Under the pieces are notes generated by a model. It worked only from the letters and a program-made list of their open reading frames with translations. It did no database searches and was not told the DNA's origin. A DNA stretch of 64,000 nucleotides from a virus (taxonomy: Duplodnaviria > Heunggongvirae > Uroviricota > Caudoviricetes), in IMG/VR virus record IMGVR_UViG_2579779105_000001. The stretch is one strand, 5' to 3'. Of the stretch, positions 1 to 12,618 are shown piece after piece. A program made the position numbers and the translations under genes. Each line of letters begins with the position of its first letter. The stretch's first letter is position 1.

Positions 1-2556
1 GTCTTTAATGCCGCCGAAATGGGGCGTCTTGACCTGGCGTCAGGCAAGCACCGTGATGCGCAGAAGAAGAACAAGATTAAGGACCAGGCCGCGAATACCG
101 GTACAGCGAAGAAGCAGAATATCCCGTACTTTGAGGATATGAACTTCGATAGCGTAATTGCCGACGAAGGGCACAACTACCGCAACTCCTTTGGTGCCGG
201 GCGTGAAGCGGGGCAACTGGCATATTTACCTAATCCGGCGGTATCCAAAATGGCCCGTGACATGGCTGTAAAAGCTGCGTACATGATGAAACGTCACAAT
301 GGGCGCGGCGTCGTAATGCTGACAGCAACTCCGCTGGTTAATAGCCCTATTGACGCCTTCAACATGCTGTCAACGGTGATCCCTCAGCACGAGTGGATGC
401 ACATGGGGATTATTACCCCTGACGACTTTGTCCGAGTGTTCGGTAAAACAGCCACTGTTCAGGTCCAGAAAATTTCTGGCGAAGTGGAAGAGAAACAGGG
501 GCTGGTGGGCTTCCAGAACCTTGATGGTCTGCGTGGCATTTTCCACCGCTGGACAACGCTTAAAACGGCTTCCGATGTTGGTGCAACGGTAAAAATCCCG
601 GATATCGTCGAAAACACCTTGCAGATCCCAATGACTCCAGAGCAGCAAGCAGCTTATGAAGAGCTTCGTAAACGCGCGCAGGAGTTAAGTCGTGGTGATG
701 ACGTCACTGTCGATGATGAAGGCAATATCACTCGCGGGAAACCGGATGATTTCATTTTCTCTATCATTCGCGACATGGATAAGGTCGCTATCGACCCGGA
801 TCTTTACGCCAGCGCTATCACATTCCAGTTCCCTGTAGAACTTACTGAACAGGTGAAGTCTATAGCTAATAACCTACCAAAAGTGGCTGGTGGGAAAGCG
901 GCAGACGATGCAGAAGAAGCAGAGGAGGATGCGACCGGAGGCCTGGTCAGTACCCGTACCAGCAAGGTTGTAGCTACAACATTTAGTGAGCATCCAAATC
1001 ACGTCGAATTGCGTGCCAGCATTGACCTGGAGGCTGAAATACTCAAGGCAATTGCTGATGCAGGCATCGACATGAAACAGGTGTCACACCCGATCCCGCC
1101 TAAGTATGCCGCACTTATCGAGAACCTTCGTGAAGGGCTTAAGAACGGTAAGCAAATTATCTTTATCGACGAGAAAGCCCAGCACCAGAAACTACGTCGC
1201 ATCATTGCCAGTGCGTTGCAAATGCCAGAGCAGGAGATAGGCATTATCAATGCTACGACTGTTAGCCAGGCTGGTGGTGTTAAGCTGAAAAAGGTCAAAA
1301 AACCGACCGAACCGACGCCAAACAAAGACGGTGAATACAAAGAAGGCGCATGGGAAACCTACTACAGTAAACTGGCCCAATATGAGGATTATCTCTCTGC
1401 TAAAAATGATGCTGGCCTTGAGGGGATGGAAGGTATTGCTGCCGACTATAACGAAGGGCGCACGCAAATCATTATCTGTAACAAGAAAGCCGAAGTAGGT
1501 ATCAACCTGCATATTGGAACGACCGATATTCACCACCTGACACTACCCTGGACTCCTGCCAGTATCGACCAACGAAATGGGCGCGGTGCGCGCGTAGGTT
1601 CTCCGCAAGAGAAGGTTAATGTTCACTATTATTGTGGCAAAGGCACATTCGATGACTTCCGTCTGGATACGCTTAAACGTAAGAAAGACTGGATCAAGAT
1701 GGTGATGACCTCCGATATGTCAGAGATCGCCAATGGTGATGCGGATGACGCTGATGAACGCGCCATTATGCTGGCGGCAAATCCGGAAGAACGACGCGCA
1801 ATTATGGCTCGTCAGTCGAAAGAACGTGAGGAACGCCTGCGACTTAAAGCGCAACGCGAAGCCAATAATGCTCTCGATAACTACCTGAAAGCGGCGAATG
1901 CTGCCGGGAAGGATATCGGCATGATGGAGGCAGAACTGAAAAGCGCGATGGAGCAGGCGCAACGATACCAGAGTGATCTGGATGGACTGATTAAGAGCGG
2001 CATCAACAAAAACGGACAGAAATATACGCTTTCAGCACTAAGCAAAGCTAAAAAAAGAGTGCGTGAATTGCGATTTGCAATCACCAGGGCGAAGGACGCG
2101 GATACTGTTATGAAACGCTCTCGTGGTGATGTGGAGCGTGCTATTAAGTCTGGTGTGCTGGATATCAGTATCGATGTTATTCAGAACCCGCAGGAGTATA
2201 TGCGCACTGGCAAGAACATCCTGTTGCATAAAGGTAGTTACTACCGTGCAGTCATTGATGCTGAATACGAGACAACGGCGATTGTACGCGTGACACAAAT
2301 TGAGGGCGAAAAAGCGCAATACACCTGCCGCGTCGCCTGGCTGGATAGAGCAAGTCGCAACTCTCGTTCTCCTGGCTCAACCATGACATTACCGTTTGAC
2401 TCAGTGGTTGAAGCGGTAACATTTGAAGAGGGGGTGGCTGAATCACGAGAAATAGCGGCACGTGGTGTTCAAAGCCACCAGCTTTCAACCTCTCTTTCTC
2501 GCGATCAATTCTATGACGCTATTCGTAGCGGTGTTATGCGGGTAACCGCACGCTGA
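1..2556 (+). CDS. SNF2/DExH-family helicase-domain protein, DarB-like; 5' end lies outside the window
   Basis: Frame 1 is open from the window edge to the stop at 2554-2556. Translation contains DEGHNYRN (DExH box) and LTATPLVNSP (SNF2 motif III-like), followed by a long coiled-coil C-terminal region. Confidence 0.55.
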   Translation, partial: VFNAAEMGRLDLASGKHRDAQKKNKIKDQAANTGTAKKQNIPYFEDMNFDSVIADEGHNYRNSFGAGREAGQLAYLPNPAVSKMARDMAVKAAYMMKRHNGRGVVMLTATPLVNSPIDAFNMLSTVIPQHEWMHMGIITPDDFVRVFGKTATVQVQKISGEVEEKQGLVGFQNLDGLRGIFHRWTTLKTASDVGATVKIPDIVENTLQIPMTPEQQAAYEELRKRAQELSRGDDVTVDDEGNITRGKPDDFIFSIIRDMDKVAIDPDLYASAITFQFPVELTEQVKSIANNLPKVAGGKAADDAEEAEEDATGGLVSTRTSKVVATTFSEHPNHVELRASIDLEAEILKAIADAGIDMKQVSHPIPPKYAALIENLREGLKNGKQIIFIDEKAQHQKLRRIIASALQMPEQEIGIINATTVSQAGGVKLKKVKKPTEPTPNKDGEYKEGAWETYYSKLAQYEDYLSAKNDAGLEGMEGIAADYNEGRTQIIICNKKAEVGINLHIGTTDIHHLTLPWTPASIDQRNGRGARVGSPQEKVNVHYYCGKGTFDDFRLDTLKRKKDWIKMVMTSDMSEIANGDADDADERAIMLAANPEERRAIMARQSKEREERLRLKAQREANNALDNYLKAANAAGKDIGMMEAELKSAMEQAQRYQSDLDGLIKSGINKNGQKYTLSALSKAKKRVRELRFAITRAKDADTVMKRSRGDVERAIKSGVLDISIDVIQNPQEYMRTGKNILLHKGSYYRAVIDAEYETTAIVRVTQIEGEKAQYTCRVAWLDRASRNSRSPGSTMTLPFDSVVEAVTFEEGVAESREIAARGVQSHQLSTSLSRDQFYDAIRSGVMRVTAR

Positions 2557-2648
2557 AAAGAGAGCGCCGGGAACTAAAAGAGCGTTTAACCAGGCTCAAT
2601 CAGCAATGCATTGATTATCAAGGCGAAGGCGTCACACTGCGTAAAAAG

Positions 2649-3281
2649 TTGGCTACAGCGCAGAGCATTATCGAAACATTAAAGCGAGAGTGCTCACAGC
2701 TTGGTCACGATCTGAACCGTGCTTGTGGCATGGGACAAAGACCAGAGACATTTCCACTTATGTATGATGGGCGGGATGCCATTGCCTACATCCATGAGTA
2801 TCCGCACGGCCTGGTTGCGGAAACTGGGCAGCGTGGCGAAGCACTGCTGACGGCTAATTACCATCAACAAATCAGAACCAATCGCCTGTTAACGATGGAT
2901 GTGATCCCATCGGTGTGGGGAACGCCGCTTTACTATCGCCTGCCGGGCTTCGAAAAGGACTGGAATACCGACATAGACGAATGTCTCGCAGATAAAATTA
3001 TGGCGTACCTGGAGACGGATTTTCCGCGCTTATATCGCCGGATTATGGACTCTAAGGATGCGCCAATCGATGAATTAAAAATGCGTCCGGAGACGCTGGA
3101 GGCAATCAAGCAGACGGAGTTTGATACTGTATTCAGTGTGGCCTGCATTCCAAGCTGTTTCCATGAAAGCATTCCGTTCATGCAAGGAGATCGTCGTCAG
3201 GAAATCATTGACGCTTGCCGGGTATGGGCGAACGAATGGGATAAGAAGAATGGGGGTGTAGAAGATCTTTACGGGAAATAA
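2649..3281 (+). CDS. hypothetical protein
   Basis: 210-aa ORF with a TTG start in the track; the true start is uncertain (possible ATG near 2727). No recognisable motif. Confidence 0.35.
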   Translation: MATAQSIIETLKRECSQLGHDLNRACGMGQRPETFPLMYDGRDAIAYIHEYPHGLVAETGQRGEALLTANYHQQIRTNRLLTMDVIPSVWGTPLYYRLPGFEKDWNTDIDECLADKIMAYLETDFPRLYRRIMDSKDAPIDELKMRPETLEAIKQTEFDTVFSVACIPSCFHESIPFMQGDRRQEIIDACRVWANEWDKKNGGVEDLYGK

Positions 3282-3295
3282 TGTGTTAGAAATCT
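3281..3295 (-). promoter_or_regulatory. putative C1-type operator-like site (TTTCTAACA core)
   Basis: The reverse complement reads ATTTCTAACACAT, matching the motif that recurs at about ten intergenic positions in this window. Confidence 0.4.
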
Positions 3296-3350
3296 AAAAT
3301 TACGATTCGAATGTATTGATTGTGAAGGTAACTTAACATAGAATTTTCCT

Positions 3351-3424
3351 TGCTGGTGGGCGGCACCCACGTTTCGCTTGCTGGGCTTGATAGTCACTTA
3401 TTGGTTATTGTTCGCCCACCAGCA
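3351..3424. repeat. 12-bp perfect inverted repeat (TGCTGGTGGGCG / CGCCCACCAGCA) with a 50-nt loop
   Basis: Read directly from the sequence. Confidence 0.6.
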
Positions 3425-3652
3425 TTTAACAAATTAAAGCGTTAGAAAAGTATAGTAACGCAAGAGCACGCTTTGGCACCGTGCAGGCCAAAGTTCAGCA
3501 GGTTTAGTGCGGAAAGTGGTTTCAGAGAGAGCACTTTGCGGAGTAAACGACAGTACATGTTGAGCCACGGAAGGTCTTTTTAAGGTGTTCATTGATGATG
3601 GTCCGGCAGAGAGTAACGGTACATGCTGCATCTAATCATCAATGCACATCTT

Positions 3653-3717
3653 CAACATTAAGGAGGCATAGGGATTTTTGTGGCGGTTACCTTTTGCCCT
3701 GAGTCTCCTTAATGTTG
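3653..3717. repeat. 13-bp perfect inverted repeat (CAACATTAAGGAG / CTCCTTAATGTTG) enclosing an AAGGAGG Shine-Dalgarno-like element
   Basis: Read directly from the sequence. Confidence 0.6.
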
Positions 3718-3934
3718 CGGTAATGCACCTATGCGGATGTGGCCTTGCATTGTGTCTTGAAAGAATGGGGTAAGGCCGGGGACATCCCCAGGGGGAGGCA
3801 CCCCCGCTGCAACGAACAGCCACAGACGGCAGTCGAGTGATGGGAACGTGCAAAGACTTTAAACCTCGTTATGGCTGGCGTGGCAAACGCGACAACCGAG
3901 ACAGAGCGGTGACGGGCGGAGAGAGTGCCGCATC

Positions 3935-4011
3935 AAGAAAGAAGCCGACTTGTGATCCCTTTCAGCGGGCATTTGAAAGTGAATCCAGTTCAGGCAGTCG
4001 GCTTCTTTCTT
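3935..4011. repeat. 16-bp perfect inverted repeat (AAGAAAGAAGCCGACT / AGTCGGCTTCTTTCTT) with a 45-nt loop
   Basis: Read directly from the sequence. Confidence 0.6.
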
Positions 4012-4031
4012 GTGTGAGATGTAGCGTATTT

Positions 4032-4055
4032 GCCCATCTTCGGGTGGGCTTTTTT
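4032..4055 (+). terminator. rho-independent terminator-like hairpin
   Basis: GCCCATC-TTCG-GGTGGGC stem-loop followed by TTTTTT. Confidence 0.45.
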
Positions 4056-4222
4056 AGGGTTTTCGTCATGGTTAGCGACTTTGCGGCGGTTTAGAACCCG
4101 ACCATTAAAGTAAATGCAAACGATGATCTGATGATGGTAGCGGCCTAAGAAGCCTGACGCCACGGGGTATGAGTCGTCCCCCGTCAAAAAATCGACCGCA
4201 GAGTGTCCCCGTCTGTGTATTA

Positions 4223-4335
4223 GGGAACGGGGAGGCATAACAGGCAAGGGCGCTGGTGTGATTAACCAGATGAATGAGAAGGGTCAGGTCTTTCTGGTCA
4301 GCGCCCTTACCTGTTACGTCCCTCCCGCGTAACAG
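4223..4335. repeat. extended imperfect inverted repeat (17-bp core AACAGGCAAGGGCGCTG / CAGCGCCCTTACCTGTT, one mismatch)
   Basis: Read directly from the sequence; flanking GGGAACGGGGAGG / CCTCCCGCG segments extend the pairing. Confidence 0.5.
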
Positions 4336-4514
4336 CCATTGCTTGATGGTATATGGGAAAGTTTGTTGGTTACGGGTATATCCCGTCATGCTGAAGGCGC
4401 TAATCACGCTGGAAGCCAGGGTTATGCATCCCCTGTTACTGAATTGCAGCCAGGGCGCGGTGCGCCGAAAAGCATACGGAGGTGGAAGCCCTCGCCGGAG
4501 ACGTACCCGGCAAG

Positions 4515-4590
4515 TGATGGTGTAGCTCAGCGGTTAGAGCGGTTGACTGTTAATCAACGGGTCGATGGTTCAAATCCATCCACCATCGCC
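4515..4590 (+). tRNA. tRNA-Asn (anticodon GTT)
   Basis: Manual cloverleaf: acceptor GATGGTG/CACCATC, D-arm TAGCTCAGCGGTTAGAGC, anticodon loop CTGTTAA, T-loop GGTTCAAATCC, 3' CCA encoded. Confidence 0.85.
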
Positions 4591-4592
4591 AA

Positions 4593-4668
4593 TGCCGGTT
4601 TAGCTCAGTTGGTAGAGCGCCTGCCTTGTAAGCAGGATGTCAGCGGTTCGAGTCCGTTAACCGGCACC
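4593..4668 (+). tRNA. tRNA-Thr (anticodon TGT)
   Basis: Acceptor GCCGGTT/AACCGGC, anticodon stem-loop CCTGC-CTTGTAA-GCAGG, T-loop GGTTCGAGTCC, CCA encoded. Confidence 0.85.
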
Positions 4669-4677
4669 AACACAACA

Positions 4678-4750
4678 GGTAAGGGTATTTTGCGACGTCG
4701 GAGATCGCCGTGCTTGGCAGAGGGTTCGAATCCCTACGAAGTACCCTTAC
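4678..4750 (+). pseudogene. degenerate tRNA-like element
   Basis: 10-bp perfect outer stem (GGTAAGGGTA / TACCCTTACC) encloses a T-arm-like AGGGTTCGAATCCCT hairpin, but the T-arm is not adjacent to the acceptor stem and no D or anticodon arm fits. Confidence 0.3.
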
Positions 4751-4882
4751 CGTTGTGATGAAGTGCAGCTCTTTGAAGCAACCAGAAGATAAGCATCTGG
4801 CTTCACAACATAAACCGCAGGAACGACCAATAAACGGTAGTCCGTATGGAGAACACCCCGTTGAGGAAGAGGCCTGGCCGGA

Positions 4883-4993
4883 ACCGTAACCGGCACCACA
4901 ACGTTGAGAACATTGGCGTAACGGGATCATATCCCAATCTATGAATAAATGTCGCGAGGCAGCGTGACAACCAGTGTTCTCAACGTTGTGGTG
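4883..4993. repeat. 19-bp perfect inverted repeat (CACCACAACGTTGAGAACA and its reverse complement) around a 73-nt loop
   Basis: Read directly from the sequence; the loop contains a GGGATCATATCCC palindrome with a GATC site. Confidence 0.6.
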
Positions 4994-5133
4994 GATTCGC
5001 AGACTGATGCGATAGCTTTCTTGGATGTTAGGGAAATGCGGCCGCAAATCTTCCCTTTCGCGAGCGGTGATCGTCCGTAGTCCTAATTGGCTGCACCGTA
5101 TGCCGGAGATTCAGTACCGGCCACCACAACGGC

Positions 5134-5220
5134 CGGAGAGTAGGGAGCATGGTGCTCAAGCGGTCTTGAAAACCGTCCCATTGCGCAAGCGATGATGGTT
5201 CGATTCCATTACTCTCCGCC
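5134..5220 (+). tRNA. tRNA-Ser-like (anticodon TGA), class II with long variable arm; slightly non-canonical D-arm
   Basis: Acceptor GGAGAGT/ACTCTCC, anticodon arm GCGGT-CTTGAAA-ACCGT (near-identical to the E. coli tRNA-Ser(UGA) arm), T-arm GATGG-TTCGATT-CCATT, discriminator G, CCA encoded. Confidence 0.5.
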
Positions 5221-5484
5221 AGCGCAACGTTAAGAGTATTTGGCTAATTAAGCGAATGCCGGAAGCAGAACCGGATCACCAAATGCGTACAGGCGTCATC
5301 GCCGCCCAGCCAGCCAAGTGCTCTTACCATTGCGGTGAATGCGGCTAAGCGCACGCGGAACAGTTAAAACAATCCTTATTAGTGGTTAAATCAAACATCC
5401 CGGCGTTAATTGTTAACTGGTTAACGTCACCTGGAGGCACCAGGCACCGCAGCTTTTTTATTCGTTAAATAATGGAGTGAGAGG

Positions 5485-5703
5485 ATGCAGAACAATCCGA
5501 ACAAATGTCGAACGCTATGGGTGCGGCTATATATTTATGTCGTCCTCTGTTTGATTGTGTCACTGGTTCTGTATGTTTGGCTTTTGCCAAATATGATCTC
5601 ATCTGACAGCACAATACTTGTATTGTTGGGAGTCCTTCTCGCGCTCATTTACCCGGCTTTTGCAGTAGTCTTTTTTCGCAAAAAAATCCAGGAAATTGAT
5701 TAA
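5485..5703 (+). CDS. small hydrophobic membrane protein (two predicted TM helices)
   Basis: 72-aa ORF with hydrophobic segments; its stop overlaps the start of the next gene (ATTAATG). Confidence 0.45.
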   Translation: MQNNPNKCRTLWVRLYIYVVLCLIVSLVLYVWLLPNMISSDSTILVLLGVLLALIYPAFAVVFFRKKIQEID

Positions 5704-6530
5704 TGAAAAAAACGTTGATTAGTGCAGCGATTATTTTTGGTTCTTTATGTCTGACCGGATGCGACCGGGTAGAACCAGGCAATGTAGGGATCAAAGTAAA
5801 TAAGCTGGGGGATGATAAAGGTGTCGGCGAAGTAGTTGGCGTTGGTCGCTACTGGACAGGCTGGAACACAGAAGTTTATATCTTCCCGACCTTTAAGCAA
5901 ATGAAGACCTATGATGATCCGTTCAGCTTCCAAATGAGCGACGGGACAACAATTGGTTACCACATTGGTGTAGCTTACAAGGTTGATCCGGCAAAAGTCA
6001 CAACTGTATTTCAGACCTACCGCAAAGGCGTGGATGACATTACCGACACCGACCTGCGCCAGAAGATTGCCGACGCACTTAACCGACTGGCCAGCAAAAT
6101 GACCACCGACAAATTTATCGACGGTGGCAAGTCTGAACTGCTGGATGCAGCTCTTAAAGACATCCAGGAAGAAATGACGCCCATCGGTATTCAGGTAATG
6201 AGCCTCTCATATGTGGGCAAGCCGGAGTACCCGCCAACCGTTATCGACAGCATTAATGCCAAAGTCACGGCGAACCAGAAAACTCTGCAACGCGAGCAGG
6301 AAGTCAAGCAACGCGAAGCAGAAGCCAACATGCTGCGCGCAGAAGCTGCCGGACAGGCCGATGCCATTCGCACAAAAGCCCAGGCTGAAGCTGATGCCAT
6401 TCGTTTACGCGGTGAGGCTCTGCGCCAGAACCCCGGCGTTATGGAGTTGGAAGCGATCAACAAATGGAACGGAACGCTACCGCAGTATATGACCAGTAAT
6501 ACCGCTGTTCCGTTTGTTCCGGTGAAATAA
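5703..6530 (+). CDS. SPFH/band-7 (HflK/C-stomatin-like) domain lipoprotein
   Basis: Lipoprotein signal with LTGC lipobox; SPFH-like core and a C-terminal Ala/Glu/Arg-rich coiled coil (AEANMLRAEAAGQADAIRTKAQAEADAIRLRGEA). Confidence 0.6.
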   Translation: MKKTLISAAIIFGSLCLTGCDRVEPGNVGIKVNKLGDDKGVGEVVGVGRYWTGWNTEVYIFPTFKQMKTYDDPFSFQMSDGTTIGYHIGVAYKVDPAKVTTVFQTYRKGVDDITDTDLRQKIADALNRLASKMTTDKFIDGGKSELLDAALKDIQEEMTPIGIQVMSLSYVGKPEYPPTVIDSINAKVTANQKTLQREQEVKQREAEANMLRAEAAGQADAIRTKAQAEADAIRLRGEALRQNPGVMELEAINKWNGTLPQYMTSNTAVPFVPVK

Positions 6531-6543
6531 CCAAATAGAGAAC

Positions 6544-6675
6544 ATGATGGAATTTTGGACGTTTGCCGACAAGAACCCTTGGTGGACATTTTTATTTCTG
6601 CTGGTGGTTGCATATGGGGTCGAGCAAGCAGCAAAAGCCTTACGCGGTCCTGGCAAAAAGCGTAAGCGGAATTAA
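6544..6675 (+). CDS. small membrane protein (43 aa), below the ORF-track length cutoff
   Basis: Translation MMEFWTFADKNPWWTFLFLLVVAYGVEQAAKALRGPGKKRKRN: one TM segment and a basic tail, immediately downstream of the SPFH gene. Confidence 0.3.
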   Translation: MMEFWTFADKNPWWTFLFLLVVAYGVEQAAKALRGPGKKRKRN

Positions 6676-6684
6676 CAGTAATCT

Positions 6685-6760
6685 GGCCCTTTAGCTCAGT
6701 GGTTAGAGCTGGCGACTCATAATCGCACGGTCACCGGTTCAAGTCCGGTAGGGGCCACCA
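6685..6760 (+). tRNA. tRNA with CAT anticodon (Met, or Ile2 if lysidine-modified)
   Basis: Acceptor GGCCCTT/AGGGGCC with one G-U pair, D-arm TAGCTCAGTGGTTAGAGC, anticodon loop CTCATAA, T-loop GGTTCAAGTCC, CCA encoded. Confidence 0.8.
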
Positions 6761-7214
6761 TATTTGGTTGTAACACGGCGTATGGCACATGCGTCGTTAG
6801 CGGTCTGGTGACGTTAAAGGGGTTATCTTTTCCCCTAGCTCAGGCAACAAACCAGGTAGCCGGAATGTGCAAGCCCCGTTCATATCGTCGGACCGAGGAC
6901 TCACCATCCTGGCGATTCGGTGTGACAGCCGGAAGAGTACGGCGCACAACAGGAAAAGGCGTTTAATTAACGCGAGCGCCGTTTCCGTTGTGGTAATTGC
7001 GGCTATGCGCTCGTGGCGAAGCCATTTTCATTCATTGAGGTTCTGATAAGTGTCGTCGCCGGGCGTGGCTGACCTGGCAGGTGGAGGCACCACCGCCACA
7101 ACTCCTTTCAATTCATCATATAGCCGCTCAGGCTGTAACCCTTAATTAATACGAAGTTTCGACATCTCTATCGGTTTAACCGAGAGATGGTCGCGCGTGT
7201 AAAAAGGAGACGTT

Positions 7215-7790
7215 ATGTTAATGGCGAACGATAACGCATATGCAGAAGAAGATCTCATTTTGAGTGACTTCATAGGGAAGCAGGAACGCTGGACCCAAAA
7301 GCGAGAGGAACTTTACGCCTCATTAGTTCGCAAAGGCGTCAATATCGAAACCGCACAGAGCGGCGATATGACAGTGGTAAGCGTTGGATTGCACGGTGTA
7401 AGCGTGTCAGCAATCAATCATGAGCCATACGTTGCGTTATCCGAGTCAATGGTAAGGTTAGTTAAGTTCCTGAAGTACACAGAAGCGAATAATGTAATCA
7501 TTGGCAAAAAGAATATCCCTTTTTCCTCGGCTTTTTACTGGATGATGAAAGGGCTTGATGCCAGGCGGACATCATGGCCTAAAGGGAGCTATATATCGAT
7601 GTTCCGTGGCAGCATTGGCAGCAAAGAAAAGCTCTTCGAATTCTTGCCGGAAGAGGCATTCGATATTGTGGAAGGGTGCGATGTGATGGTGATGCCTCGC
7701 CTGGTAATGATGAATGGTGATTTACAGGCGCAGACAGACTGGTTTGCAACTGGTGTGGATATTATCGCGACTGACTGGGAGGCTTTCTGA
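7215..7790 (+). CDS. hypothetical phage protein with DUF2829-like C-terminal motif
   Basis: 191-aa ORF with an upstream AAAGGAGA RBS; the C-terminus (AFYWMMKGLDARRTSW ... ATDWEAF) resembles the motif in the 15441-16142 protein. Confidence 0.5.
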   Translation: MLMANDNAYAEEDLILSDFIGKQERWTQKREELYASLVRKGVNIETAQSGDMTVVSVGLHGVSVSAINHEPYVALSESMVRLVKFLKYTEANNVIIGKKNIPFSSAFYWMMKGLDARRTSWPKGSYISMFRGSIGSKEKLFEFLPEEAFDIVEGCDVMVMPRLVMMNGDLQAQTDWFATGVDIIATDWEAF

Positions 7791-8182
7791 TGTACGGGAC
7801 TACCAAATTAAGCACTCAACAGGCCACCAATATGGAGTGGTCTATCGCTAACTGTAAGATCGTGTCATGCAATGCCACGCGTACTGATGTGGGCCATAAA
7901 AGCACTATAACAGGCTATCTGGTAATGACCACCAGGGGGATGAGGGTTAGATTTCGCTGGAAAGCAGAGCAAGTAACGCCATTCAGAGAGCCATCAATGC
8001 CGCTGCAGGTTGAGCAGGATTATCTATGTTTACCAGAAATAGATGGCGGAATGCTGGTGGAGTCTGATGGTAGTAAGGCTGATTTTGAAGCCAATTTGAA
8101 GCTGGCACAGGCCGTAATCAATAGTTATCGCGGACAGTGGATCGCAAAAGTGAAACATGTTGTTCGTTTGTCTCGCTGGTAG
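7790..8182 (+). CDS. hypothetical protein
   Basis: 130-aa ORF; its start overlaps the stop of the upstream gene (translational coupling). Confidence 0.45.
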   Translation: MYGTTKLSTQQATNMEWSIANCKIVSCNATRTDVGHKSTITGYLVMTTRGMRVRFRWKAEQVTPFREPSMPLQVEQDYLCLPEIDGGMLVESDGSKADFEANLKLAQAVINSYRGQWIAKVKHVVRLSRW

Positions 8183-8200
8183 CATTAGATATTTAGTATT

Positions 8201-8215
8201 AATTTTCTAATACAA
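8201..8215 (+). promoter_or_regulatory. variant operator-like site (TTTTCTAATACA)
   Basis: Shares the TTTTCTAA core; lies upstream of the lpa-like gene. Confidence 0.3.
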
Positions 8216-8290
8216 TCATCTTTTTGCCAGTCTATACAGTTTTAACATTCTCATTATCATCCCCTCGGTCATTTCCTGCCCGGGGGATTA

Positions 8291-8683
8291 ATGGAACAAA
8301 TCAGCAGCGCAGAAATTGCGGATATCATGATTAGGGCTGACTGCTATCTGACAGTCACTGAAATTACCATTCTCGCCAAAGAAAAATACCCTCATCTCCA
8401 TGTTTCACGGGTAAGTGTAACTAACATCATTCGTCATTTTGTTCGTTCAAGCAGGGCAATCTGTGAGCTTGATGATCGCGTTTACCCACGAAAATACTGG
8501 TTGCATGGCCTGAACGGATATCAGTTCAAGGTGCGTGGGCGAACCCCTGAATACGGCAGTTTACTGGTTAAAAACTGTAGCAGGAAATCAGTCGAACAGG
8601 CGCGAAAAGAGCAACGAGAGCTGGTGGACATGGCGAATAAGCTGTGGAATGCCGCCGTTAAAAAGCGTGGTGTTGCTTTATGA
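8291..8683 (+). CDS. putative late promoter activator (Lpa-like), by position upstream of pacA
   Basis: 130-aa ORF overlapping the pacA start by 4 nt. P1 has lpa directly upstream of pacA; no sequence comparison was possible. Confidence 0.35.
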   Translation: MEQISSAEIADIMIRADCYLTVTEITILAKEKYPHLHVSRVSVTNIIRHFVRSSRAICELDDRVYPRKYWLHGLNGYQFKVRGRTPEYGSLLVKNCSRKSVEQARKEQRELVDMANKLWNAAVKKRGVAL

Positions 8684-10044
8684 GTCTGGTTAATTGGGAG
8701 GAGCACCGCGCCCGCTTTATAGCGTTGCGTGAAGAAAAAGGGATCACTGTAAAGGAATACTGTGAGGAGCATGGCCTTAGCTTCAATACAGCCAGAAAGC
8801 ATCTCAATATGAAAAAAAATGAGGTGCGGTCGCAGGTAAAGACAACAAAAAAAAGCACCAAATCACCTGAAAAAAAACGGGCAGGAAGAGCAACAAAAAA
8901 GCAGGAAGAGGGTGCAGGAAAAACAAAATTTACAGAAATTGACAATTCGCAGGGCGCAGGTTCTTTCCGAAGTATGCCGAGAAAGAAAACTTCGGATCAT
9001 GAAAATAATTCAAATAATAACAATGAGATAAAAGAATCCGTCAGGAGATCATTACGCGAAAAAATGGCGAAAATGATCCCCGAAGAAGATAAAAGCGCCC
9101 CAAAAATTGAGGGATCTTCTGCAATGATCCCTGACGGTGCTGTGCAGCGTGCCACATTGCCAACTACGAATGTAGCTCGCGATATGATGAAGAACGGCGC
9201 AGAAGAACACCTGCGGTTAGCAATTCAAATGGCGCAAGAGCGCGCACTTCAGTATCAAAGCATTGTTGATCAGGAGGCCGAACGTCTACAGGCGGAAATA
9301 GACACCCTGGGCGATAAAGAGCCAGAAGGAATGCACCCTGGGCAGCGCCTTCTCGGTCTAATCAGTGACGCGGCCTACTACATGAATGATTTTATCAGTA
9401 GGTTGGCAGCTATTTATCAGTCCGAACAAAAGCTGCGACAGGGGGATGAAAAGCTTCGTCAGAGCGCTCGCCAGCAAGCATTCAAAGAGGCTGAGGCCAG
9501 AGAAAAACTCGAATTAGCACGCCTACAGGCCGAACAGCGTGGCAAAGAGATTGAATATCGCATTGGCGCTGACGCACGCGCAGCCAGAGTTATCGCCGCC
9601 GCTATACGTATGCGTGAGCGCGAGGAACTGGATGATATCGGTGTTGCTGAATACATCGAGCGCCAGGGTGTCAGCGTCCCGGCTATCCTCGCGGCGCGCG
9701 CGGCGAAAGCTATCACTCTTCTCGAACCACCTGTTTCTGACGTCAATGATGTTGATGATGAACAGCTGGACAAAGAGGCAAGGGAGTTTGCAACGCTTCA
9801 GGCTAACCATCCGCAATGGCTGGCAGAGCGCCGGGCGGATGTGGCAACCATTGTTGAAGAATTGGGGTGCGGAGATTACGACCGCAATGGCGAGCGTAAA
9901 GCTGGAGAATTCGAGGCCAACGACGAAGAGCTGGATATTGACCCTTCGGCAACGGCTGAAATTTACGGTGATTATGATGCATCTGATGCAGGGTATGACG
10001 CCGGAGATGATGATATCGCGATAGAACCGCCGGAGGATGATTAA
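8680..10044 (+). CDS. pacA: terminase small subunit / pac-site recognition protein (PacA-like)
   Basis: 454-aa ORF with N-terminal HTH-like region, basic/acidic low-complexity linker and acidic C-terminus; lies directly upstream of the large terminase. Confidence 0.55.
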   Translation: MSLVNWEEHRARFIALREEKGITVKEYCEEHGLSFNTARKHLNMKKNEVRSQVKTTKKSTKSPEKKRAGRATKKQEEGAGKTKFTEIDNSQGAGSFRSMPRKKTSDHENNSNNNNEIKESVRRSLREKMAKMIPEEDKSAPKIEGSSAMIPDGAVQRATLPTTNVARDMMKNGAEEHLRLAIQMAQERALQYQSIVDQEAERLQAEIDTLGDKEPEGMHPGQRLLGLISDAAYYMNDFISRLAAIYQSEQKLRQGDEKLRQSARQQAFKEAEAREKLELARLQAEQRGKEIEYRIGADARAARVIAAAIRMREREELDDIGVAEYIERQGVSVPAILAARAAKAITLLEPPVSDVNDVDDEQLDKEAREFATLQANHPQWLAERRADVATIVEELGCGDYDRNGERKAGEFEANDEELDIDPSATAEIYGDYDASDAGYDAGDDDIAIEPPEDD

Positions 10045-11552
10045 TGGCTGGCAGGCGCAAGGTTAAATGCGTCACCAGAGATCCACGCTGGCGCGATATG
10101 GTAATCAAATACCGCTACAACTTTACCCAGGCTGTTGTCGATATTTTTGGGATGTTCCCCTCCCACCAGCAGCAGCAGATCATTCAGTCCGTACAGGAAA
10201 CGGGGAGTAGGACTACCGTCACGTCCGGACACGGAACGGGGAAGTCGTCCCTTACCGCGATGTTGCTGTTGATTTTTATGATCCTGTTCCCCGATGCCCG
10301 TGTCATCATTGTTGCTAACAAGATAGGCCAGGTAAAAACAGGCGTATTCAAATACGTTAAACAGTATTGGGCGAATGCAGTTAAGCGTCATGGGTGGTTG
10401 CAGACCTATTTTGTCCTCTCTGACACCATGTTTTATGAGCGCTCCCGTAAGGGGATTTGGGAAGTTCTCTGCAAAGGTTATCGACTCGGCAACGAAGAAG
10501 CGCTGGCGGGGGAACACGCGGCACATTTGCTTCTAATTCTGGATGAAGCATCTGGTATATCTGATAAGGCGATCGGCGTAATGACCGGTGCTCTTACTGA
10601 AGAAGATAACCGGATGTTGATGCTATCCCAGCCAACAAGGCCAAGTGGTTATTTCTACGATTCGCACCATTCTCGAGCAAAAACCCCAGACAACCCGAAA
10701 GGGATCTGGACAGCAATTGTTCTTAACTCGGAAGAATCACCGTTCGTCACACCACAATTCATCAAGGAGAAGCTTCTGGAATATGGCGGGCGCGATTCTA
10801 TTGAGTACATGGTCAAGGTGCTTGGTCAGTTCCCACGAGAAATTAACGGCTATTTGCTTGGTCGTGATGAATGCGATCGCGCTGCTCGCCGCAAGGTGTT
10901 GTTGGAGAAAAACTGGGGATGGGTGGCAACGGCTGACGTTGGTAATGGGCGAGATAAGTCGGTCCTCAACATCTGCAAGGTATCAGGTCACAGGGATAAG
11001 CGGCGCGTTGTTAACTTTAAGGTAATGGAGATGCCTGGCACTATGGACCCATTGGCCTTTGCTGACTTCATATATAACGAATGTACGCCGGAAAAATACC
11101 CGAATATAACAATCGCGGTTGATGCTGATGGTTTTGGTTCTGATACGTGTGCGCAGTTGGTGCGTCGTGGTGCGAACCCGGTACGTATTCGGTGGGGAAA
11201 ACCCATGTTTGCGAACAAAGACAGGGAGCGATTTGTTAATCAGCGAGCCTACGCAAATATTATGGCGCGTGATGCCATAAAGTCAGGGCGTATGCGGATA
11301 GACAGTGACTCTAAAACGGCAGAGCAAGCGTCAAAAATCCCCTTTTTACTGAATGAAGAAGGGAAAATGGCGATGATGCGCAAAGAGCACATGCGGCAAA
11401 AGCTAAACATCAAATCGCCTGACCGATGGGATACCTACTGCTTCACTATGCTGGTGGACTATGTGCCTGCTAATGAAGATATTGGTGCCGAAATGGCAAC
11501 TTTCCGAGATCAGGTTCTGGCGGATATCGAAATGCCGGATCTGGATATATAA
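10044..11552 (+). CDS. pacB: terminase large subunit (PacB-like)
   Basis: 502-aa ORF with Walker A-like GHGTGKSS and LILDEAS Walker B-like motifs; start overlaps the pacA stop. Confidence 0.6.
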   Translation: MAGRRKVKCVTRDPRWRDMVIKYRYNFTQAVVDIFGMFPSHQQQQIIQSVQETGSRTTVTSGHGTGKSSLTAMLLLIFMILFPDARVIIVANKIGQVKTGVFKYVKQYWANAVKRHGWLQTYFVLSDTMFYERSRKGIWEVLCKGYRLGNEEALAGEHAAHLLLILDEASGISDKAIGVMTGALTEEDNRMLMLSQPTRPSGYFYDSHHSRAKTPDNPKGIWTAIVLNSEESPFVTPQFIKEKLLEYGGRDSIEYMVKVLGQFPREINGYLLGRDECDRAARRKVLLEKNWGWVATADVGNGRDKSVLNICKVSGHRDKRRVVNFKVMEMPGTMDPLAFADFIYNECTPEKYPNITIAVDADGFGSDTCAQLVRRGANPVRIRWGKPMFANKDRERFVNQRAYANIMARDAIKSGRMRIDSDSKTAEQASKIPFLLNEEGKMAMMRKEHMRQKLNIKSPDRWDTYCFTMLVDYVPANEDIGAEMATFRDQVLADIEMPDLDI

Positions 11553-11555
11553 AAG

Positions 11556-11572
11556 CCCCGCAGTGCGGGGCC
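11556..11572 (-). terminator. hairpin GCCCCGCAGTGCGGGGC between convergent pacB and the 11581-12618 gene
   Basis: On the minus strand the hairpin is followed by TTTTAT. Confidence 0.4.
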
Positions 11573-11580
11573 GGTGGTGA

Positions 11581-12618
11581 TTACCAGAGCTTTGCGGCGC
11601 GCTGCGTTTGGGGGAATGTGTATCCGTAACGTTCTTCGATTGCTTTGCCGTATTTTTTACGCGCTTCATTCAGTTTGATGCCGGTCAGGTCGTCTCCAGA
11701 GGCCATCATTACGTCTAACAATTCCAGATCCATTTTATCCAGCCTTGCCATTGCTTCACGCGATGTACGAATCTTACGTTCAATGATATGGCGAATAGCC
11801 GGATCGGCATCCTCCAGCATCTTAGCTGATTTCTGCTTAAGGTTTTCGTTGCGGATATCGATGTTCCTTAAGATATACGACTTCGCAACGTAGCTTGGCT
11901 GATGTTTTTCCAGGTCACGAACACGATATAAGCTAAAGTCGCCGAGAAGGCTGCAAGGCACCGATTCGACGCCAGAATAAATTGTAATGCTACGGCGTTC
12001 ACCAACATTATTGACAACGGGGATCGTTGTCTTCGGTAGTTTTGCGAAAACGAATGCGCCATGTGCGCCAACTCTAAAGCGAGAAAGGGCATTGCTGCCT
12101 TCGATGTTTGTTGTCAGCACAACATCTGTATATGCCTCTTTACGCGCCCGGTAGACCTCGCCTTCAGGCTCAGCTTCAAAGAAGCGCTGTTCTTCTTCAA
12201 GAGCACCTACGATTTGAGAAAAAACCCTATTTTTCAGGCTTTTCTTTATGATTTTGTCGTATTTTTTGAGCAATTGTTCACGTGTAAATGTACGTGTTGT
12301 TGTAGCGCTTTGCACAACAACATGCGTGCTTTGATTGGTGTCCTCAATGATGAATGGGATCGGAGAATATACAGACTCAACAATGTTAGACGCTTTGCCG
12401 TCAGCATTACGGCACAAGTCAACAAAGGCTTTCCATTCTGCGAGGCACTTTTCAGCTTCTTCTAGTACATTTTGGTCGTGTGTTAGTGCAACGTGGCGGA
12501 ATTCCTCGCCAGCATAACTGGTATCATGGAAAACAGAGTTTGCGACCACCAGCTCTTTCCACCGTTCAGCGGTTTGCAGGAACCGTTTGTACTCTTTCTC
12601 GATCGACTTCTTACTCAT
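11581..12618 (-). CDS. hypothetical protein; candidate C1-like repressor by position and operator context
   Basis: 345-aa ORF convergent with pacB; an operator-like motif sits just upstream at 12637-12652. No sequence-level confirmation. Confidence 0.3.
   Translation of the reverse strand: MSKKSIEKEYKRFLQTAERWKELVVANSVFHDTSYAGEEFRHVALTHDQNVLEEAEKCLAEWKAFVDLCRNADGKASNIVESVYSPIPFIIEDTNQSTHVVVQSATTTRTFTREQLLKKYDKIIKKSLKNRVFSQIVGALEEEQRFFEAEPEGEVYRARKEAYTDVVLTTNIEGSNALSRFRVGAHGAFVFAKLPKTTIPVVNNVGERRSITIYSGVESVPCSLLGDFSLYRVRDLEKHQPSYVAKSYILRNIDIRNENLKQKSAKMLEDADPAIRHIIERKIRTSREAMARLDKMDLELLDVMMASGDDLTGIKLNEARKKYGKAIEERYGYTFPQTQRAAKLW

Follow-up and report, generated by a model that had tools for sequence, protein, structure and literature searches.

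The window analysed here, a stretch of 64,000 nucleotides (nt) from a virus of the class Caudoviricetes (IMG/VR record IMGVR_UViG_2579779105_000001), carries a small group of genes between a tRNA cluster and a tRNA with a CAT anticodon. A preliminary description of this DNA had placed there three coupled genes, for a two-transmembrane protein, an SPFH-domain lipoprotein and a transmembrane peptide. The list of open reading frames (ORFs) has three plus-strand ORFs of 72, 275 and 43 amino acids in this interval, and ARAGORN finds the tRNAs on either side. Our analysis assigns the first two to an exchangeable cassette and the third to the surrounding backbone:

5485–5703, + strand: gene for a 72-residue hairpin protein with two transmembrane segments (ORF list; phrog_1130), partner of the SPFH protein
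5703–6530, + strand: gene for a 275-residue SPFH/Band-7 lipoprotein (Pfam PF01145; phrog_200), with a predicted lipobox LTGC and Cys20
5452–6542, + strand: exchangeable cassette comprising the hairpin and SPFH genes, delimited by BLASTN against D6, where it stands in for tciA-tciB
6544–6675, + strand: gene for a 43-residue TciC homologue (BLASTP to P1 TciC), a backbone gene outside the SPFH pair

The SPFH domain proposed earlier is borne out by a Pfam profile search: the 275-residue protein matches Band_7 over residues 22–208, scoring 107.9 bits where the gathering score is 23.6 (E = 7.8e-31). It also matches phrog_200, a lipoprotein family, with E = 1.4e-114. A single-sequence AlphaFold prediction was unusable (predicted local distance difference test score, pLDDT, 48); the AlphaFold2 monomer model used here was built from an alignment of 46 sequences and has a pLDDT of 89.2. 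This model comprises, in order, a signal helix, a β-rich SPFH1 domain, an α/β SPFH2 domain, a 65-residue helix, a short helix and a less confident tail, with strands at 20–94, helices at 96–158, a strand at 163–175 and a helix at 178–242. When the model was compared with the PDB using Foldseek, HflK ranked first (7vhq_E, E = 2.4e-14), followed by prohibitin, erlin, HflC, stomatin, flotillin, QmcA and the vault shoulder, all at 14–19% identity. E-values for HflK, prohibitin, erlin, stomatin, flotillin and QmcA range from 1e-14 to 1e-8, with a Foldseek probability of 1.00 for the first five. HflK is also the best match in a sequence search of the PDB (E = 2.4e-4). However, the protein falls far short of the cut-offs of the HflK/HflC equivalog models (TIGR01932, 25.3 bits against 134.4; TIGR01933, 23.5 against 159.4; PRK10930, 19.9 against 660). 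Neither the N-terminal transmembrane anchor of HflK/C nor a paired K/C paralogue was found; there is a single SPFH gene with a predicted cleavable lipoprotein signal and a 72-residue hairpin protein as its neighbour. From equivalog scores of 20–25 bits and the weak sequence match to HflK, we conclude that the 275-residue protein is a member of the SPFH superfamily and, on its sequence, no orthologue of HflK or HflC; its modelled architecture is that of a full cage-forming protomer. The label 'serine protease', frequent in records of Stx phages, looks like a misannotation. None of the three proteins matched a model of the PADLOC-DB v2 defence collection (E ≤ 0.01), and a known anti-phage defence system was discarded as an identity for the locus.

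The N-terminus of the SPFH protein reads MKKTLISAAIIFGSLCLTGC|DR. Residues 1–20 have the form MKK-TLISAAIIFGSLC-LTGC, that is, a basic n-region, a hydrophobic h-region and a lipobox (pattern applied, [LVI][ASTVI][GAS]C) at Cys20-Asp21-Arg22, in line with the lipoprotein signal described before. The lipobox with its following aspartate (LTGC-D) is preserved in all three enterobacterial signal-peptide alleles (3/3), each of which reads GCDRVEPG. To count lipoboxes and gene fusions more widely we used 142 full-length top representatives of the family, 14 of them fused to a hairpin and 128 unfused; an N-terminal lipobox is present in 76 of the 128. Aspartate at position +2 is an inner-membrane retention signal in Enterobacterales, with the effect of arginine at +3 being uncertain, and tyrosine at +2, as in phage N4, is also compatible with retention in the inner membrane. 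Asp+2 thus suggests that the SPFH lipoprotein stays in the inner membrane. Based on this residue and on the topology forced on fused homologues with three transmembrane segments, we infer that the SPFH domain lies on the periplasmic face of the inner membrane, and that the conserved turn of the hairpin is periplasmic too.

The 72-residue protein has two hydrophobic segments, as first described, and basic termini, and it matches phrog_1130 ('membrane protein, moron') with E = 1.1e-14. A ribosome-binding site (GGAG/GAGAGG) precedes its ATG, and its stop codon overlaps the ATG of the SPFH gene by 1 nt (TAATG). Judged from this overlap, the hairpin and SPFH genes are a translationally coupled two-gene unit. 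The pairing is widespread. A two-transmembrane ORF ends only a few bases from the SPFH start codon at 78 of the 80 best IMG/VR loci, the exceptions being L039 and L016, the latter with just 210 bases upstream of its SPFH gene. Upstream hairpin ORFs also accompany SPFH homologues of 40–53% identity, including those of metagenomic phages, and one is present in Klebsiella phage Seu621. In coliphage N4, the gene for the hairpin protein gp19 (…LLPSMVS…) overlaps that for gp20, a protein with 61% identity to that of the window and a lipobox reading LTSC. When cluster representatives at 50% identity were searched exhaustively, 2,872 relatives were recovered at E ≤ 1e-3, of which 220 reached E ≤ 1e-30. 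In 14 of the 142 full-length representatives, a hairpin, a third hydrophobic segment and the SPFH protein form a natural fusion, with a lipobox-like cysteine in 11 of these 14. When separate and fused hairpins are aligned, Pro35 and Ser39 are invariant and Gly49 is nearly so, giving a turn motif of Px(L/M)(I/V)S. One 94-kb contig, of a closely related element, encodes a 347-residue protein (P0001) in which the hairpin and SPFH frames are joined in a single ORF, the SPFH part being 100% identical to the window protein; the joined ORF resembles the natural fusions of distant homologues and is either a sequencing frameshift or a real variant. An NfeD-like partner, suggested earlier as something to look for, was not found: Pfam searches for NfeD (PF01957) gave no match for the 72-residue or 43-residue protein at E ≤ 0.1, or for 13 hairpin homologues at E ≤ 1.

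Hairpin and signal peptide together occur as three allelic types, P1-like, P2-like (P88 gp11/gp12) and lambdoid (phiP27 and Stx2 phages), across all of which the mature SPFH protein is at least 92% identical to that of the window. The ratio of nonsynonymous to synonymous substitution rates (dN/dS) for the mature SPFH region is 0.012 against RCS47, 0.031 against phiP27 and 0.007 against P88, at synonymous divergences (dS) of 0.5–0.7. By these ratios, the SPFH protein is under very strong purifying selection and its function is maintained. The hairpin gene has a dS of only 0.066 against RCS47, compared with 0.51–0.57 in the adjoining mature SPFH region; hence, the cassette is a mosaic in its own right. 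At the nucleotide level, phiP27 and P88 become similar to the window at 5756, directly past the signal peptide. Together with the contrast in dS, this implies that recombination breakpoints lie where the signal peptide meets the mature protein. Antisense ORFs within the SPFH gene (e.g. 6191–6634, 147 amino acids) were dismissed as spurious, since both the Pfam match and the purifying selection belong to the sense frame.

The locus was compared with D6 by BLASTN. Positions 4400–5451 match D6 at 98.2% and positions 6543–7300 at 89.2%, whereas 5452–6542 replaces D6 tciA and tciB, such that the junctions fall at 5451/5452 and 6542/6543. RCS47, vB_EcoM-Ro157c2YLVW and some records named 'P1' have the same cassette in this slot, 89–90% identical in nucleotide sequence; in P1, P7, D6 and SJ46 the slot is filled by tciA-tciB(-tciC) instead. 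The comparison among P1-like elements proposed earlier thus does reveal variation in presence and absence. The element is a P1/D6-like phage-plasmid; P1-like elements had been named earlier as its relatives, but over 4400–5451 the alignment makes the backbone D6-like and not P1 proper. The slot is bounded on the left by an RNA resembling STnc100 and on the right by tciC and tRNA-Ile2. The surrounding features are:

4516–4591, + strand: tRNA-Asn(GTT) (ARAGORN, Rfam)
4594–4669, + strand: tRNA-Thr(TGT) (ARAGORN, Rfam)
5135–5221, + strand: tRNA-Ser with anticodon TGA (UGA) (ARAGORN, Rfam)
5331–5451, + strand: STnc100-like structured RNA (Rfam RF02076, below gathering score), with its 3′ end at the left cassette junction
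6685–6760, + strand: tRNA with a CAT anticodon (ARAGORN, Rfam), identical to P1 trnI
Counterparts of the STnc100-like element: 3432–3552 in L003, 3545–3665 in L002 (RCS47) and 3349–3468 in L001

The 43-residue ORF begins 13 nt downstream of the SPFH stop codon and ends 9 nt upstream of the tRNA. Described before as a transmembrane peptide, it is present as an ORF, but its hydrophobic stretch is only short. In BLASTP it matches P1 TciC (E = 2e-8, 39% identity), and it has a weak match to phrog_23152 (E = 0.0021). Its DNA is collinear with D6 just past tciB, where an unannotated D6 ORF reads MMDFWTYIDKNP..., and its dN/dS against D6 is 0.08. The ORF is missing from RCS47 and Ro157c2YLVW, in which the SPFH stop codon abuts the tRNA. 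Collinearity with D6, the match to TciC and absence from RCS47-type carriers all place it outside the SPFH unit, so the coupling once ascribed to three genes applies to the first two. By the same comparisons, the 43-residue ORF is the retained third gene of tciABC, and the locus is a two-gene cassette plus TciC. We also asked whether the hairpin is a homologue of TciB (DUF3927), which would make the two cassettes architecturally equivalent. This was ruled out: BLASTP gave no alignment, hhalign a probability of 0.1% and Pfam no match.

According to a review of P1-like phage-plasmids, tciABC is one of eight hypervariable regions and has been 'lost' from nearly half of subgroup 1; SPFH is not mentioned there (PMC9603915). 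The slot is non-essential in P1 (PMC10695390). In PLSDB, 189 plasmids have at least 80% of the SPFH cassette and 118 have tciAB. These counts suggest that the 'loss' of tciABC in about half of P1-like phage-plasmids is replacement by the SPFH cassette. At least 80% of window positions 1–12000 is covered by 97 PLSDB plasmids. The closest (e.g. NZ_CP058619.1) span this 12-kb query over ~15.8–15.9 kb of the record in 2–5 pieces, and thus have an extra ~3.9 kb within the region; some annotate a DivIVA-domain protein there.

The preliminary description regarded a phage-encoded SPFH module as unusual. Its frequency across plasmids, E. coli genomes, IMG/VR and phage records lends this no support. Besides the 189 PLSDB plasmids, the exact 275-residue sequence occurs in at least 1,000 contigs under the name 'MULTISPECIES: SPFH domain-containing protein [Enterobacteriaceae]', and the gene is found in 511 of 5,426 complete E. 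coli genomes (~9%), with 394 chromosomal and 199 plasmid locations. In IMG/VR, an SPFH relative is encoded on at least 550 contigs; this search used a narrow alignment, and the relatives it returned were all at least 93% identical (the best 80 loci were inspected). Using tblastn, we identified a homologue in 385 GenBank phage records, which include virulent N4 and range over N4-like, Vequintavirinae, jumbo, Bruynoghevirus, Ounavirinae, phiCbK-like, crAss-like, Lak and Myxococcus phages. SPFH ORFs of T4-like phages were already tabulated in 2006 (PMC1524935). On these database counts, the hairpin-SPFH module is a common and already annotated phage accessory cassette, and no rarity.

Several observations bear on when the cassette is expressed. 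A crude scan of the plus strand from 3400 to 7400 found no σ70-like promoter. The P1 C1 operator ATTGCTCTAATAAATTT has 0 matches in the window with up to 3 mismatches, so P1-type regulation cannot be read off. The P1 record annotates C1 control for the tRNA-tci-ban operon. In P88, the pair belongs to the P2-like early operon and precedes the replication gene; in phiP27, it is found between the early-left genes and xis/int; and in N4, in the middle-gene region just past the RNAPII genes. The tci genes are induced during P1vir infection (bioRxiv 10.64898/2025.12.28.696737). From the lack of a detected promoter, the C1-controlled P1 operon, the positions in P88, phiP27 and N4, and the induction of tci, we infer that the cassette is expressed in the lytic phase.

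The STnc100-like RNA at 5331–5451 scores 40.4 bits against Rfam RF02076, below the gathering score of 47 (E = 2e-6), and lies directly upstream of the slot in D6, RCS47 and P1 also. Its alignment contains compensatory stem changes, with a fold z-score of only −1.55. Only in carriers of the SPFH cassette is the closing stem followed by a run of six U residues, at 5454–5459 in the window, which makes a terminator-like 3′ end located 26 nt upstream of the hairpin start codon. The STnc100 family comprises prophage small RNAs related to PasD (bioRxiv 10.64898/2026.05.13.724894).

The CAT-anticodon tRNA is 100% identical to P1 trnI, labelled tRNA-Ile2 in the P1 record, and to the RCS47 copy; the upstream tRNA cluster (4516–5221) is 98% identical to D6. 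The tRNA-Ser(UGA) has a long variable arm and reaches 46.6 bits with the tRNA-Sec model of Rfam, whose gathering score is 47. D6-like elements have this tRNA but P1 and RCS47 do not, and the D6 record remarks that tRNAscan-SE would not assign it an amino acid. Upstream of the tRNAs, ~1.2 kb (3281–4515) lacks a convincing ORF. This region has a strong terminator-like hairpin at 4032–4049 (GCCCATCTTCGGGTGGGC, then T6), P1 annotates a dicF-like region at the equivalent position, and a scan of positions 2500–7400 found no Rfam family in it at E ≤ 0.01. Downstream of the CAT tRNA, a plus-strand ORF of 191 amino acids (7215–7790; D6 orf6) has a domain similar to Tad2, Thoeris anti-defence 2 (PF11195, E = 1.7e-9, 38.5 bits against a cut-off of 25), which suggests that the neighbourhood is a counter-defence or accessory island. 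Elsewhere, SPFH homologues lie near an RtcB-like ligase in CcrRogue (L098) and a metagenomic phage (L088), near a tRNA nucleotidyltransferase (CCA-adding enzyme) in phiEa104 (L097), and near an Acb2/Tad1-hairpin protein at another locus (L087). These examples, with the tRNA array of the window (4516–6760), suggest that homologues of the module recur beside tRNA, tRNA-repair and counter-defence genes.

The reading we favour, to which we give an even chance of being right, is that the mobile cassette encodes a periplasm-facing SPFH cage on the inner membrane in the lytic phase. The cassette would be transcribed together with the tRNAs in a lytic-phase operon. After Lsp processing, the lipoprotein would remain on the periplasmic face of the inner membrane and oligomerise via its long helix into a ring or cage, like HflK/C, prohibitin and stomatin. 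A cage enclosing a membrane patch is proposed because every solved full-length SPFH assembly offers that analogy. Both the lipid anchor and the hairpin would attach it to the bilayer, and the conserved turn of the hairpin would face the periplasm, where it could touch the membrane-proximal SPFH1 domain. By fencing a patch of inner membrane, the cage might condition or protect the membrane of the infected cell. We favour such a role because the module is found in temperate and virulent phages alike and is interchangeable with a TerB-family cassette; ter operons have been linked to resistance against phages and colicins (PMC9603915, PMC6799933). What the membrane might be protected from is a guess by analogy: collapse of the membrane potential, pore-forming toxins or incoming phage. 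Several points weigh against this reading. Oligomerisation, localisation and lipidation of the SPFH protein are all predicted properties, and for protection of the membrane the one pointer is positional exchange with a TerB cassette that is equally uncharacterised. Some distant SPFH homologues, in U47 and phiEa104, lack a hairpin. The terminator-like U-run just upstream of the cassette complicates its transcription, and, the promoter scan being crude, the cassette may also be expressed from the prophage. Lastly, a Pasteurella protein possibly related to the SPFH lipoprotein occurs in outer-membrane vesicles (PMC9872710).

Expression from the prophage is central to one alternative, which we consider unlikely: that the cassette serves the lysogen in exclusion or defence, its inner-membrane complex preventing other phages from injecting their DNA, or colicins and contact-dependent inhibition (CDI) toxins from being imported. 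The layout of T4 Imm/Sp resembles a small transmembrane protein plus a periplasm-facing protein, which favours this explanation. So do the moron-like mobility of the cassette among P1-like, P2-like and lambdoid prophages, the counter-defence or tRNA-repair genes adjoining the module in several phages, and its allelism with a cassette annotated for tellurite/colicin resistance (PMC6799933). However, PADLOC gave no match, no promoter of its own was detected, and the operons that contain the module are repressor-controlled or lytic-phase ones; in virulent phages, which also have it, a benefit to the lysogen is irrelevant. The preliminary description had pointed to FtsH, and a cage mimicking HflK/C could enclose or sequester host FtsH, altering the turnover of regulators or host substrates and so tuning lysis-lysogeny or host physiology. 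HflK and HflC are the best matches of the SPFH protein by sequence and fold, SPFH cages are repeatedly coupled with membrane proteases, and the very low dN/dS would suit a highly conserved host partner; HflKC was reportedly found by Chiba et al. in 2006 to face the periplasm, an orientation like that predicted for the SPFH lipoprotein. Nevertheless, we regard an FtsH modulator as quite unlikely, given that the SPFH scores are generic (23–25 bits against equivalog cut-offs of 134–159, at 17–19% identity), that the protein lacks the N-terminal transmembrane helix of HflK/C, and that some of the phages with the module are virulent and have no lysogeny decision to tune (N4, Vequintavirinae and a T4-like context). 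Moreover, no dependence of P1-type immunity on CII/FtsH is known.

Distinctly improbable, and the most far-reaching, is a version in which the pair (N4 gp19/gp20-like) is an unrecognised cross-phage system, its periplasm-facing inner-membrane cage controlling a conserved host gateway. In its most interesting form, the cage would surround FtsH or a similar complex and block tRNase colicins, CDI toxins or depolarising abortive-infection effectors; caging of such a gateway, if true, would explain the recurrent adjacency to phage tRNA and tRNA-repair genes. Very improbable is a lysogenic-conversion virulence lipoprotein, a vesicle-released agonist of Toll-like receptors (TLR) 1/2 that acts on serum resistance in an animal host, as reported for Pasteurella multocida PM0222. 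That protein is prophage-encoded, HflK/C-like and ~300 amino acids long with Band_7 at 23–221; it is found in outer-membrane vesicles, and its mutant is attenuated (PMC9872710, Table S1). Its homology to this SPFH subfamily is conjectural, TLR2 stimulation is generic to lipoproteins, Asp+2 predicts retention in the inner membrane, and homologues in environmental virulent phages (Caulobacter, Myxococcus, Ruegeria) speak against an animal target. Decaying or functionless DNA hitch-hiking in a recombination hot spot would fit a slot that is hypervariable and, in P1, non-essential (PMC9603915, PMC10695390), but we give this next to no credence: the ORFs are intact in hundreds of records, the pair is kept down to ~40% identity, and the selection analysis, with dN/dS of 0.007–0.03 at dS of 0.5–0.7, excludes junk DNA.

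Our literature search found no functional study of this SPFH subfamily, N4 gp19/gp20 included. Apparently new are the recognition that 'loss' of tciABC may be replacement, the dedicated and sometimes fused two-transmembrane partner of the SPFH lipoprotein, and the wide range of the pair, which extends from temperate coliphages as far as N4, Vequintavirinae and other groups and is subject to unusually strong purifying selection. Since the module is present in tractable model phages (N4, P1-like and lambdoid), knockout or expression work could give a very common phage gene a role, and would also fix the widespread 'serine protease' misannotation.

Compared with known systems, the pair has true homologues, with no difference in kind, in N4 gp19/gp20 and in PHROG families 1130 and 200, whose members are uncharacterised and annotated as 'lipoprotein', 'membrane protein' or, wrongly, 'serine protease'. 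The tciA-tciB-tciC genes of P1, P7 and D6 occupy the identical slot, are likewise small membrane-associated accessory genes and have TciC in common with the window; however, tciA-tciB has no homology to the SPFH cassette, TciA being a TerB-domain protein and TciB a DUF3927 protein. PM0222, the sole experimentally studied candidate relative that we found, shares with the SPFH lipoprotein its prophage location, HflK/C likeness, length and short N-terminal leader; the protein was studied as an immune stimulant and virulence factor rather than for its part in phage biology (PMC9872710). SPFH-NfeD operons (QmcA-YbbJ, YqiK-YqiJ and the archaeal stomatin-NfeD protease) are similar in combining SPFH with a small membrane protein in two genes, and QmcA is among the fold matches of the SPFH lipoprotein (8z5g, E = 8e-8). 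Here the partner differs, being only 72 amino acids long, encoded upstream and devoid of an NfeD/OB-fold domain; furthermore, QmcA faces the cytoplasm, unlike the window protein, which is predicted to be periplasmic. With HflK/HflC-FtsH of E. coli, the module shares the SPFH1/2 core, the long coiled-coil helix, the C-terminal cap segment and a predicted periplasm-facing orientation; it differs in having a single SPFH gene, a predicted lipid anchor in place of a transmembrane helix, and a separate hairpin partner.

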